Source of the DNA: Rickettsiales bacterium | GTDB taxonomy: Bacteria; Pseudomonadota; Alphaproteobacteria; Rickettsiales; UBA6187 | Length of the DNA stretch: 64,000 nt | NCBI GenBank assembly: GCA_040507985.1 | Contig: JBEVNR010000016.1 | Span: forward strand, 3,509 to 67,508 | Direction of reading: 5' to 3' | Part shown: positions 21,403 through 24,930 of the stretch, one piece after another | Layout: each line of letters begins with the position of its first letter | How positions within the stretch are numbered: the first letter of the stretch is position 1 | Notes under the pieces: generated by a model | Seen by the model: only the letters and a program-made list of their open reading frames with translations | What the model was told of the DNA's origin: nothing | The model's database searches: none | Translations under genes and position numbers: made by a program

Positions 21403-24400
21403 ATGTTCGGCCGATTCGTTGTTTTTGTCGCCGTCTTGGCGCTTTCGTTTTCGTCGCTTGCTTACGCCAAGTCGCCGCCGCCGGGGGCAGGGGTGGGGGA
21501 CGTGCCGGCGAACGTGTTTTTTTTGCTCGACACCTCCGGCAGCATGGACGAATACGTCTCGGATACGGAAAGCTTTTCCTACCCTTACGACGTGGCGAGC
21601 GACTCGAAGGGCAACGTCTATATCGCCGAAGAATACGGAGGCATAGCCGTGTTCGACAAAGACGGCAACTATGTGAGCCGAATCGGGTCATATAGCAGCG
21701 CGAGCGTAAGCCGCGCGAAGTCAGACGAATTTTATTACGTGTTCGGCGTGGCGACGGATAGCAGCGACAACGTCTATGTGTGCGACGTCTACCACAAGCG
21801 CGTGCAAATATTCAAAAGCGACCTCACGTTTAAAAGCTCTATTTCACTGGGGAATTATTGCTACGGCGTCGAAATATCTCCCGACGACACGCTCTACGTC
21901 ACCCAATCGGACGGCAATATTTACCGTTTTAGCTCAACCGGCACAAGTCTCGGCAAATGGAACATGAGCGGCAGCGCGCTGGCCGTCGCGTTCGACAAAG
22001 ACGGGCGGCACTACGTGTTGCGGTTGGTCAGCAACGCCTATCGCATTTACGTGTATAACAAAAGCATGACGCTCGAAGATTACGTGCAAATCGAAAAAAA
22101 ACAACCGTACGCCATTTCGCCCGTCTCGCTCGCGGTGGATAATAATTATTCCATTTACGTCAGCGACGCCGATTATTACACCAGCAAAGTCTTTAAAATC
22201 ACGAAAAAATCGACCGTCTCCTATATTAACGACGATACCGACGTGGCCTCCACAAGCTATATCGGCGGGTCGCGCTCGTCGACGAAAGGCTATTTCCGCA
22301 CGCCATACGGCGTTCATTTCGATAAATACAGAAACGACGTGCTTATCGCCGACAACGGCAATCATCGGGTACAATCCTATACCGGCGCGAGCTATTTTTC
22401 AGGGCTAGGGGAAACGCGGCTCGACGTCATGAAAAAAGTGATCAAGAAAATCGTCTCCGACAGTTCGCTCACCGACGGCGCCTATTTCGGGCTGGCGGAT
22501 TGGAACAGCTCGGCGACCATGCGCGTGAAAGTGGCGTCGCAAGGCGCGGCGGACATTTATTCCACGGTGGATAATCTGAAGGCGAGCGGCAACACCTATC
22601 TCGACGGGGCGATGACGCTGGCGTCGCAATATTTTCTGGGCAAGGACAGCCCGCGCGATTCGCGCATTCCCTGCCAAAAAAATATCCTCATCGTGGTGAG
22701 CGACGGATATTGGGAGAACAAAACCGCAACGACGACCGCCAAAACCCTATCGAAAGATTACGATATTCTTACCCACGTGATCGGTTTTCAGGTGACGGGG
22801 GACAATAATTACGTCGATATGGCGAAAGCCGGCGGCACCTATCCCGAATCGCCCCTTTTTGCGGAGGATTGGACGGATTTATACGAGAAAATCGCCGGCG
22901 CCGTTCGCGCCGCCATTAGCGCCGACCTCACCTTCGCCGCGCCGACCATTATGCCCGACGTCGTGGGCGACGACCATATTTTGCAAGCGACCTTCCGCTA
23001 TAAGGCCTATCACCAATGGAAGGGGCGGCTGAAAAAATACCTGCTCACCGACGACGGCTATATCGGCGCCCTGCAATGGGACGCGGGCGAGCGGCTGAAT
23101 GTGATCTCCGCCGACGCGCGTAAGCTATGGACGGCGGCGCCGGGGCTTCCTTCCGGCACGAACAACTTCATCGCCGCCAACGTCAAGCTGCTGCAACCGG
23201 CACTTGAGTCGCGCCTGACGAAAACCATGGCGGAGACGGACGCGGTCAATCTCATTCAATTCGTGCGGGGAAAAGACGTCTACGGCGAATTCGCAAGCGG
23301 GGCCGACGACGAGGGCGACAAAATTTATCCCGGCGACCGATGGAAGCTGGCCGACGTCTACCATTCGCGCGCGCTGGCGGTGGGGGTGCCGGCGGCGAGA
23401 TACGCGGCGGAGGCGAACGCGGCGAGCGAAGCCTATTACCGCTATGCCCGGGGCTACGGCGATTTCGTGAAAAGCGCCGCGTGCGGGGGGTCTTGCGCCG
23501 CACGAAAAGGGGTGGTGTATGTCGGATCGAACGGGGGAATGGTTCATGCCTTCGATCAGGGAACGGGCGACGAACTGTGGGGATTCATCCCTCCCATGCT
23601 GCTGGGCGCGTTTAAGGACATGCGGGCGCCCTCAAACGGCTCCAGCTATGGCATTTTTGGGGTGGACGGCTCGCCGGCCGTGAAGGACGTCTATGACGGC
23701 GCGGCGTGGCATACCGTGTTAGTCGTGGGATTGCGCCAAGGCGGCAGCGGCTATTCCGTGCTCGACGTCACCGATCCCACGCACCCGTCGCATATCTACA
23801 GCATTACCTACGATAATTATAACGGCGAGGTGGTCTATTGGGATAAAGACGGCACGACCGCGAAATTTCGCGCGAGCGGCGCCGTTCCGGCGGGATTCGA
23901 CGCGCGAAAGCTGGGCGAGGGCTGGTCCGACCCCGCGATATTGTTGCTTCCCTCCGGCGAGGACGGCGCGCTCGCGTGGAATTTCGTCGCCGCCGGCGGA
24001 TATAATTCCGGAACGAATAGCGCCTACGGCAACGCCGTGTTCGCGTTCGATTTGTTCGGCGCCTCGCCCGTGGCCGCGCAAACGTCGCTGCCCGATTTAT
24101 ACGCTACGGACGGCATAGCGAACGCCGCTCCGCCGCCCCTCACCGTCGTGAACGCCGACACGACGTCGAAATTTCCCTACCAAGGCGCGATGCTGTACGT
24201 GACCGACCTGCAAGGGCAGGTATGGAAGCTGGACGCCACCAATCGCGGCCATTTCATGGAGGCGCGGCGGGTGCTTGACCTCGGCACGACGCGCGCGAAC
24301 GTGCGTTTTCCGTTCCAGCAGCTCGTTTCGGCGTTTTCGGAAGGAAAGCTCTACCATTTGGCCGGCACCGGCGACGCGGTCGATCCGGACGCCATGTCCT

Positions 24401-24930
24401 CTTCCGTCGACAACCGCCTGTTTGCCGTCGCGGACGAGGATTTCCCGAACCTATTGCAGCAAATCCCGCATAACGGCGGCACGCTAGAGGCCGAACGCTC
24501 TCCCTATAGTTTGTCGCAATTGAACGTCGGGGGATTCGCGGGGCAACGCTGCGACGCGCAGGCGGCGGCAGGGTGGCATATAAAGCTTGCTGACTCCGGC
24601 AAGATTCTCTCGCCCGTCACCGTCTTCAACCACGAAGTGTTGGCGCCGGTGTACTACCCTAACCCGCTCAACGTTTGTTCGGGCGGCGGCAGCAAATTGC
24701 TGGAAATAGCGCTCGGATGCGGCGCGAAGGTGAAGGAAACCGACCTCGGCGGCGGCGTGTCGACCCGCGCCGTCGTGTACAACAACAAAGTCTATCTGGG
24801 CATTTCCGATTCGGAGTCTAGCGTCGCCCTACCGGCCGGATTCGTCAAAACGGGCAACCTCATCGTCGGCAAGCCGGCGAACGAACGCGCCGCGCAGGTG
24901 GAGATCGAGTCGTGGTGGGAGGGGAGGTGA
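21403..24930 (+). CDS. PilY1-like large secreted adhesin: vWA domain split by an NHL-repeat propeller, plus a C-terminal PilY1 beta-propeller
   Basis: Signal peptide ..SSLAYA|KS. MIDAS start NVFFLLDTSGSM (aa 37-48). Six NHL-like repeats lie between about aa 58 and 328 (e.g. DSKGNVYIAEEYGGIAVFDKDG, DSSDNVYVCDVYHKRVQIF, RNDVLIADNGNHRVQSY). The vWA domain resumes at about aa 338 (..ASGNTYLDGA.. ILIVVSDGYW). The PilY1/PilC C-domain signature is VVYVGSNGGMVHAFDQGTGDELWGFIP .. WHTVLVVGLRQGGSGYSVLDVTDP. Confidence 0.8.
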   Translation: MFGRFVVFVAVLALSFSSLAYAKSPPPGAGVGDVPANVFFLLDTSGSMDEYVSDTESFSYPYDVASDSKGNVYIAEEYGGIAVFDKDGNYVSRIGSYSSASVSRAKSDEFYYVFGVATDSSDNVYVCDVYHKRVQIFKSDLTFKSSISLGNYCYGVEISPDDTLYVTQSDGNIYRFSSTGTSLGKWNMSGSALAVAFDKDGRHYVLRLVSNAYRIYVYNKSMTLEDYVQIEKKQPYAISPVSLAVDNNYSIYVSDADYYTSKVFKITKKSTVSYINDDTDVASTSYIGGSRSSTKGYFRTPYGVHFDKYRNDVLIADNGNHRVQSYTGASYFSGLGETRLDVMKKVIKKIVSDSSLTDGAYFGLADWNSSATMRVKVASQGAADIYSTVDNLKASGNTYLDGAMTLASQYFLGKDSPRDSRIPCQKNILIVVSDGYWENKTATTTAKTLSKDYDILTHVIGFQVTGDNNYVDMAKAGGTYPESPLFAEDWTDLYEKIAGAVRAAISADLTFAAPTIMPDVVGDDHILQATFRYKAYHQWKGRLKKYLLTDDGYIGALQWDAGERLNVISADARKLWTAAPGLPSGTNNFIAANVKLLQPALESRLTKTMAETDAVNLIQFVRGKDVYGEFASGADDEGDKIYPGDRWKLADVYHSRALAVGVPAARYAAEANAASEAYYRYARGYGDFVKSAACGGSCAARKGVVYVGSNGGMVHAFDQGTGDELWGFIPPMLLGAFKDMRAPSNGSSYGIFGVDGSPAVKDVYDGAAWHTVLVVGLRQGGSGYSVLDVTDPTHPSHIYSITYDNYNGEVVYWDKDGTTAKFRASGAVPAGFDARKLGEGWSDPAILLLPSGEDGALAWNFVAAGGYNSGTNSAYGNAVFAFDLFGASPVAAQTSLPDLYATDGIANAAPPPLTVVNADTTSKFPYQGAMLYVTDLQGQVWKLDATNRGHFMEARRVLDLGTTRANVRFPFQQLVSAFSEGKLYHLAGTGDAVDPDAMSSSVDNRLFAVADEDFPNLLQQIPHNGGTLEAERSPYSLSQLNVGGFAGQRCDAQAAAGWHIKLADSGKILSPVTVFNHEVLAPVYYPNPLNVCSGGGSKLLEIALGCGAKVKETDLGGGVSTRAVVYNNKVYLGISDSESSVALPAGFVKTGNLIVGKPANERAAQVEIESWWEGR

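Follow-up and report, generated by a model that had tools for sequence, protein, structure and literature searches.

We analysed a stretch of DNA of 64,000 nucleotides from a Rickettsiales bacterium of the GTDB lineage UBA6187 (contig JBEVNR010000016.1; the whole stretch is hereafter the window), in which one large gene, at 21403-24930 on the plus strand, is pilY1-like. We conclude, with a probability of roughly 0.8, that the product of this gene is a tip adhesin of PilY1 type, carried on a type IVa pilus, and that the organism is an environmental, deep-branching alphaproteobacterium of Rickettsiales type. The protein is made up, in order, of a signal peptide, a von Willebrand factor A (vWA) domain whose metal-ion-dependent adhesion site (MIDAS) is complete, an NHL beta-propeller nested inside that vWA domain and a PilY1 C-terminal propeller. 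To judge from the sequences of its relatives, this nested layout is the rule in a clade to which both SAR11 and environmental Rickettsiales belong. The gene is divided as follows (aa, amino acids).

21403-24930, plus strand: whole pilY1-like gene, ATG start, 1175 aa; predicted PilY1-family type IV pilus tip adhesin
21403-21468, plus strand: predicted Sec-type signal peptide, aa 1-22, MFGRFVVFVAVLALSFSSLAYA; read by inspection and from the alignment
21469-21546, plus strand: mature N-terminus KSPPPGxG, vWA strand beta1 and MIDAS DxSxS loop, aa 23-48; from the alignment, the model and the splicing score
21574-22401, plus strand: six-bladed NHL beta-propeller in the vWA beta1-alpha1 loop, aa ~58-333; from Pfam, phmmer, AlphaFold2, Foldseek and BLASTP
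22408-22917, plus strand: second part of the vWA domain, from helix alpha1 to its final helix, aa 336-505, with MIDAS T398 and D434; from Pfam, the alignment and the spliced profile
22918-23502, plus strand: middle region, which links the vWA domain with the propeller at the C-terminus, aa 506-700; conserved among family members and alignable with an insert-less PilY1 (locus L034, below)
23503-24930, plus strand: PilY1/PilC-type C-terminal beta-propeller, aa ~701-1175, ending in ESWxE and the stop codon; from phmmer and Foldseek

The open reading frame (ORF) uses the first ATG that follows a stop codon and runs intact over 1175 codons, and its product is 100% identical to the NCBI entry MET0155129.1, 'MAG: VWA domain-containing protein [Rickettsiales bacterium]' (MAG, metagenome-assembled genome), which is encoded on a contig of 101 kb. 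The database names of family members are similarly generic, being 'VWA domain-containing protein', 'hypothetical protein' and, once, 'PilY1'. We aligned 23 full-length homologues, 33-69% identical, and unless stated otherwise conservation below refers to this alignment. Every family-invariant column is kept in the window protein, the C-terminal ESWxE included, and because of this we regard the gene as intact. The N-terminus is variable and hydrophobic up to a conserved A-K-S-P-P-P-G, which would make cleavage of the signal peptide before K23 probable; beyond it K23, P26, P27, G28, N37, S45, S47 and M48 are invariant. The stretch K-S-P-P-P-G-x-G (aa 23-30, nt 21469-21492) is near-invariant across the alphaproteobacterial family, SAR11 included, and where these proteins have it the PilY1 proteins of other phyla have A-D-D-S-D-I-F-G. 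An AlphaFold2 model built from the 23-sequence alignment had a mean predicted local distance difference test (pLDDT) of 81.8 and a predicted template-modelling score of 0.70, with the KSPPPGxG stretch itself at a pLDDT of about 40.

The first piece of the vWA domain follows this N-terminal motif closely. NVFFLLDTSGSM corresponds to aa 37-48, with the DxSxS codons at nt 21529-21543, and the DxSxS motif was present in every complete family member examined. The Pfam VWA match, by contrast, lies at aa 335-492 and covers profile positions 12-167 of 174, that is, the domain without beta1 and the DxSxS loop; within it stand the remaining MIDAS residues, T398 in SGNTYLDGA and D434 in VVSDGYW. Across the alignment S45 and S47 are invariant, and D43, T398 and D434 are at least 90% conserved. 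Splicing aa 31-50 to aa 334-512 in silico raised the PF00092 score from 43.9 to 60.4 bits (+16.5) and extended the match from profile positions 13-167 to 1-167, and the same excision in the homologue P0005 raised it from 52.0 to 65.2 bits. A profile made from 20 spliced sequences matched solved vWA domains from end to end with DxSxS in register, covering positions 4-188 against 9no5 and 6-190 against the integrin alpha-X I domain. After excision the MIDAS residues are spaced as S17, T85 and D121, similar to S144, T209 and D242 of the integrin alpha-M I domain. In the structural model a strand is found at aa 36-43 (pLDDT 82-87), and helix alpha1 at aa 339-352 is followed by five more vWA strands. 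On four independent lines of evidence, taken from sequence comparison and modelling, we conclude that the vWA is a single domain, predicted to be completed around the NHL insert.

The insert itself reads as a six-bladed NHL propeller. Pfam found NHL repeats with an E value of 1.5e-12 (47.3 bits against a cutoff of 20), and the model contains 24 strands between aa 61 and 333, which equals six blades of four strands. Foldseek aligned the insert with the NHL domain of TRIM71 (8j72) with an E value of 3e-16, a TM score of 0.80 normalised to the target and an rmsd of 2.9 Å, and a phmmer search of solved structures returned the NHL domains of Thin, TRIM71 and TRIM2. The 24 strands of the propeller are complete before beta1 is counted, and beta1 is needed to bring the vWA sheet from five strands to the canonical six; we therefore assign it to the vWA domain. 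The linkers are short, with about 10 residues from the last MIDAS serine to the propeller and about 5 from the propeller to helix alpha1. The NHL-coding part (21574-22404) has a GC content of 51% compared with 61% for 22405-24930, for which we considered a recent horizontal gain of the segment; this was rejected, as the insert occupies the same site throughout the clade, and the low value probably comes from an amino-acid composition rich in Y, N, S, D and K.

Relatives that lack the insert define its bounds. In locus L034 (from the MAG UBA5680) the sequence AKTPPPG...ANILIMLDNSGSM runs directly into helix alpha1, and BLASTP aligned aa 18-48 of the window protein with aa 19-51 of the L034 protein and aa 339-817 with aa 55-565, so that the insert comprises aa 49-338, or 290 residues. 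The vWA domain is likewise uninterrupted in loci L067 and L069, and the VWA profile is matched continuously from its position 1 in L067. At this point of the vWA domain, seven PilY1 proteins of other phyla have a different, unrelated insert, 85-115 aa long. Inserts of differing kind at one point indicate that the beta1-alpha1 loop is a recurrent insertion site in PilY1 vWA domains. As a separate observation, L034 holds two tandem PilY1 paralogues at 411-5822, each with the family N-terminal motif and neither with an NHL insert, and a 183-aa ORF between them. The first paralogue is represented by two ORFs of 558 and 477 aa, and the second has an ORF of 568 aa whose end falls at the homologous position; the split could be a frameshift, an assembly error or genuine, and the missing insert could reflect either a loss or an ancestry that never had it.

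Downstream of the vWA domain, the middle region (aa 506-700) matched no Pfam family and carries the invariant motifs QWKG, WDAG, NNF, FVRG-D-Y and RWKLAD-YHS. The C-terminal part matched the C-terminal domain of Pseudomonas aeruginosa PilY1 (3hx6) both in sequence (phmmer, E value 5e-18, aa 701-860) and in predicted fold (Foldseek, E value 2e-15, TM score 0.56 normalised to the target). Precomputed annotation also assigns PF05567 to 16 of 24 members of the family. By sequence and model the window protein thus fits the structural definitions of the PilY1/PilC family and of a MIDAS-bearing vWA domain.

A preliminary description made from the letters of the window alone had proposed much of this design: a secreted protein of 1175 aa, a vWA domain starting at DxSxS (nt 21529-21543) and interrupted between beta1 and helix alpha1 by six NHL repeats, the MIDAS Thr and Asp following the interruption, and PilY1/PilC propeller signatures at the C-terminus. 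All of these are borne out, the ORF directly, the signal peptide by inspection of the sequence, the start of the vWA domain by the splicing gain and the profile match from position 1, the Thr and Asp by their conservation in the 23 sequences, the interruption by Pfam, AlphaFold2, splicing, the spliced profile and the L034 alignment, the propeller by the Pfam repeats, the 24 model strands and the TRIM71 match, and the C-terminus by the two matches to 3hx6. The same description had named two ways in which it could be wrong. A fortuitous DxSxS match is at odds with the splicing gain and with the conservation of the motif in complete family members, and two separate incomplete domains are at odds with the full-length vWA match that returns once the NHL propeller is excised. 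Its view of the architecture as unusual holds in comparison with described PilY1 proteins and fails in so far as it implied a singleton, the layout being standard in the clade with SAR11.

The extent of that clade emerged from a scan of one genome per GTDB species, which gave 508 relatives. At the top were MAGs of Rickettsiales and other Alphaproteobacteria at 38-41% identity, a UBA6187 genome (L007) among them, followed by dozens of single-cell and metagenome genomes of Pelagibacteraceae (SAR11) with full-length matches. The nested design is common to about 24 metagenomic proteins of Rickettsiales type and to dozens of SAR11 genomes; those SAR11 members that we put through Pfam showed the same order of NHL followed by VWA, and the insert measures 260-370 aa across the clade. 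Many SAR11 PilY1 proteins (within L044-L083, for example L052 and L078) are longer, at 1470-1630 aa, with an insert of 350-370 aa at the same vWA site that gives no NHL profile match and with extra insertions in both the vWA domain and the C-terminal propeller. Within SAR11 the tip module appears to evolve fast.

Gene context ties the family to type IV pili. Recognisable Pil genes lie within 10 kb in 67 of 83 related loci, and in the locus of P0008 (41% identical) the homologue sits inside the run pilMNOPQ-pilB-pilC-pilD-pilins-pilX-[gene]-pilT-pilins. The two nearest relatives with usable flanks, P0003 (58%) and P0004 (52%), are both preceded by minor-pilin operons: each lies downstream of five small genes, several of which have prepilin N-termini (GFTLLE, GFGLLE, GFTLAE and GFSLLE). 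By its sequences and these neighbourhoods the family represents the type IVa pilus PilY1 of an alphaproteobacterial clade including SAR11. The closest relative of all, P0002 (69% identical, from a beach-sand metagenome; L086, 1-1867), has no pilins within the 1.8 kb upstream, and a pilY1 gene set apart from the minor-pilin operon may be common to the subclade of P0002 and the window gene. Upstream of P0002 are some 850 bp without coding sequence and a divergently oriented gene to which no function is assigned.

The same organism probably encodes a pilus machine elsewhere in its genome, to judge by sequence searches. A search with a PilQ profile returned MET0155850.1, 'MAG: type IV pilus secretin PilQ [Rickettsiales bacterium]', which lies 721 accession numbers from MET0155129.1 in the same NCBI accession block. 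Its gene is on a Logan contig from the run that also yielded the window contig (SRR28982155), with a GC content of 56.7% compared with 56.5% for the window and a third-position GC (GC3) of 0.757 compared with 0.746 for the window gene. Basal and apparently free-living Rickettsiales of the Mitibacteraceae and Athabascaceae, UBA6187 among them, have been described as having type IV pili, flagella and the rvh type IV secretion system (T4SS) (PMC9352585), and the occurrence of pilY1 and virB genes in one window of 56.5% GC fits this combination.

Several results weigh against our reading of the gene. First, no type IV pilus gene was found in the 64-kb window, either by a six-frame search for prepilin motifs or by tblastn with a set of 15 Pil proteins taken from the cluster of a relative (best E value 0.19). 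Second, PilQ is assigned to this genome by accession proximity, sequencing run and GC content, not by a shared contig. Third, a search with a profile of PilW-like minor pilins, of limited sensitivity, gave six proteins, none of them from this MAG. Fourth, a direct Pfam scan of the window protein gave no match to PF05567 at E <= 1. Fifth, the EF-hand-like Ca2+-binding loop that controls P. aeruginosa PilY1 (the 850-859 site) is not conserved. At its position (aa 913-923, nt ~24139-24171) ADTTSKFPYQGA stands in place of Dx[DN]xDGxxD, as it does throughout the aligned Rickettsiales and SAR11 members, whereas non-alphaproteobacterial relatives retain DLNNDGYIDR; Ca2+ control of the P. aeruginosa kind is thus probably absent here. 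Myxococcus PilY1 proteins with imperfect Ca2+ sites are known, however (PMC8833165). Finally, how beta1 packs with the other vWA strands, and where the propeller stands with respect to the MIDAS, are features that we infer.

The alternative that survives best, though we think it improbable, is that the protein is a stand-alone secreted or surface adhesin working independently of a pilus, either a relic or the bearer of a new role acquired after the link to the minor pilins was lost. The absence of upstream minor-pilin genes from both the window gene and P0002 fits such a history, as does the minor-pilin profile search that returned nothing from this MAG. Against it stand an ORF of 1175 intact codons, all family-invariant residues in place, ESWxE included, and the PilQ secretin assigned to the same MAG. 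Nor does the separation itself distinguish this gene, as unlinked pilC/pilY1 genes are normal in Neisseria (PMC13190605), so that linkage to pilus genes is typical rather than obligatory.

Much less credible is a second alternative, in which the protein is an adhesin or tip factor of the adjacent T4SS, co-regulated with RDD-virB8-10 through the divergent promoter region. In its favour is the position of the pilY1-like gene, oriented divergently from the RDD-virB8-virB9-virB10 group with a short AT-rich spacer between them, in a window without pilus genes. The neighbouring features are these.

21203-21402, no strand: divergent spacer of 200 bp between RDD-virB8-10 and the pilY1-like gene, presumably containing both promoters
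20597-21202, minus strand: RDD, gene for an RDD-family membrane protein (Pfam RDD)
19661-20443, minus strand: virB8 (Pfam VirB8)
18883-19683, minus strand: virB9 (Pfam CagX)
17368-18864, minus strand: virB10 (Pfam TrbI)

The spacer has a GC content of 42.5% compared with 56.5% for the window, at about the 5th percentile of 200-nt windows. Its single sigma-70-like match (21257-21229, minus strand) does not exceed the number in shuffled sequences, and a scan for promoters and terminators found nothing above the shuffled expectation that bears on co-regulation. We examined 85 other loci with homologues of the gene (L001-L084 and L086, the pilQ contig having been fetched as L087) and found virB8, virB9, virB10 or RDD beside the homologue in none of them, from which it follows that the adjacency is not conserved. 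Orthologues are embedded in pilus clusters instead, the C-terminal domain is the pilus-docking PilY1 propeller, the window protein matched no T4SS family, and a PilQ secretin is assigned to the same MAG. Within the 64-kb window virB8-10 stand isolated, without other T4SS genes (virB11, virD4, virB4 and virB6 included), among housekeeping genes that include purD, an amino-acid permease gene, trxB-like and holB-like genes, era, serS, rtcB, guaB, metG, nusA, infB, ftsK and genes for 2,3-bisphosphoglycerate-independent phosphoglycerate mutase and a thiolase. The rvh T4SS genes of Rickettsiales are typically scattered. We judge that RDD-virB8-10 are not part of the adhesin's system. The preliminary description was therefore accurate in reporting no type IV pilus genes in the window and a 200-bp AT-rich divergent spacer at 21203-21402, but its suggestion that the spacer could pair an adhesin with a secretion apparatus is not sustained by the 0 of 85 loci with this adjacency, the 67 of 83 with Pil genes and the PilQ of what is likely the same genome. 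The tempting link between adhesin and T4SS in this window is thus removed as unsupported.

Least probable of all is that the DxSxS segment lies outside the vWA domain, as a chance match or as the closing strand of the propeller, leaving the vWA domain incomplete: the Pfam VWA match does start only at profile position 12, but splicing adds 16.5 bits and coverage from position 1, the motif is invariant across the family and contiguous with alpha1 in L034, L067 and L069, a vWA domain that lacked the central strand and three of the five MIDAS ligands would not be expected to fold or to stay conserved, and a role for beta1 in closing the propeller is rejected on the strand counts (24 in the propeller without the segment) together with the insert-less homologues.

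Taking the gene as that of a pilus tip adhesin, we can suggest how the parts might work together. In the models of PilY1 for Myxococcus and Pseudomonas, the C-terminal propeller sits on the minor-pilin complex and the N-terminal domain lies at the extreme tip (PMC7541494, PMC13190605). By analogy, the C-terminal propeller of the window protein would dock on the minor-pilin complex and, because it docks there, the NHL-vWA module would form the outermost pilus tip and contact the substrate. Since the linkers are short on both sides, the NHL propeller should be held rigidly beside the MIDAS face. Propeller and MIDAS could then present an added or composite ligand-binding surface, and a pulling force exerted via the propeller could reach the MIDAS loop and helix alpha1. 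A further and more doubtful step, which we offer as a tentative possibility, is that the NHL-in-vWA head is a composite sensor and adhesin in which the propeller binds a ligand and, by virtue of its place in the MIDAS loop, would pass the force of pilus retraction directly to the MIDAS and helix alpha1, switching the vWA domain between states as in integrin I domains. Candidate ligands for the propeller would be polymers, DNA for instance, or glycans and proteins displayed by eukaryotes, algae or particles. In this organism the gene would have moved away from the minor-pilin operon, and its place opposite RDD-virB8-10 would be a rearrangement without functional meaning.

Another way to view the protein is by comparison with systems already known. 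Like PilY1 of P. aeruginosa and PilC of Neisseria, it is a secreted protein of about 1100-1200 aa with an N-terminal vWA domain and a C-terminal propeller, and the likeness extends to orthologues in its family that are encoded just after minor pilins in pilus clusters. Unlike them, it has an NHL propeller in the vWA loop, ADTTSKFPYQGA in place of the Ca2+ loop and the clade-specific KSPPPG, and in this genome only, its gene is unlinked to pilus genes. PilY1.1, PilY1.2 and PilY1.3 of Myxococcus xanthus follow the same principle of a conserved docking propeller combined with a variable tip module (PMC7541494, PMC13190605); however, Myxococcus swaps the whole N-terminal domain (vWA or DUF4114), and the window protein has a domain inserted inside its vWA domain. 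Integrin alpha chains, too, are adhesion molecules in which a MIDAS-bearing vWA domain and a propeller are nested through short linkers where the ligand binds, but with the roles reversed: in integrins the vWA domain is the guest in a seven-bladed FG-GAP propeller, whereas here a six-bladed NHL propeller is the guest in a vWA host. We found no evidence of common descent of the two nestings. The insert has the same six-bladed, four-stranded fold as the NHL propellers of TRIM71/LIN-41, Brat, Thin and the bacterial sensor PknD; it differs from the eukaryotic RNA-binding NHL domains in sequence (about 20% identity) and in sitting within an extracellular bacterial adhesin.

In the literature that we searched, we found no paper that combines PilY1, von Willebrand and NHL, and a survey of PilY1 diversity from 2026 makes no mention of NHL. 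Thus, the nested architecture, real and conserved, appears to be undescribed, while the protein family and its general role are already known. PilY1 sets what a pilus adheres to and takes part in surface sensing, and its variable N-terminal modules are thought to give specificity. SAR11 are among the most abundant bacteria of the ocean, and environmental Rickettsiales stand near the origin of host association, so the conservation of the tip module in both makes it a concrete target for binding studies. The role of pili in SAR11 was called unclear in a 2025 study of SAR11 genomics (PMC12789548). If the force-switched composite head is true, it would provide a molecular handle on the purpose of SAR11 pili and would bear on how the first Rickettsiales attached to hosts.

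Two other features of the window deserve mention. On the plus strand at 14716-17276, five tandem ORFs with lipoprotein-like signal peptides and the motif GW.DGC...Y..W(K)DAY.YC converge on the 3' end of virB10. They are mutual paralogues (tblastn E values 1e-5 to 1e-10), at approximately these positions:

14716-15501, plus strand: small tandem ORF
15486-15866, plus strand: small tandem ORF
15871-16215, plus strand: small tandem ORF
16149-16616, plus strand: small tandem ORF
16632-17276, plus strand: small tandem ORF

The four of them compared with Pfam (all except 15486-15866) gave no match. On the minus strand at 31071-32048, a 325-aa ORF contains a Spore Coat Protein U (SCPU) domain (E value 2.5e-11). 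SCPU domains are typical of secreted subunits of chaperone-usher-type fibres, and this ORF may be another surface-fibre component encoded in the window.

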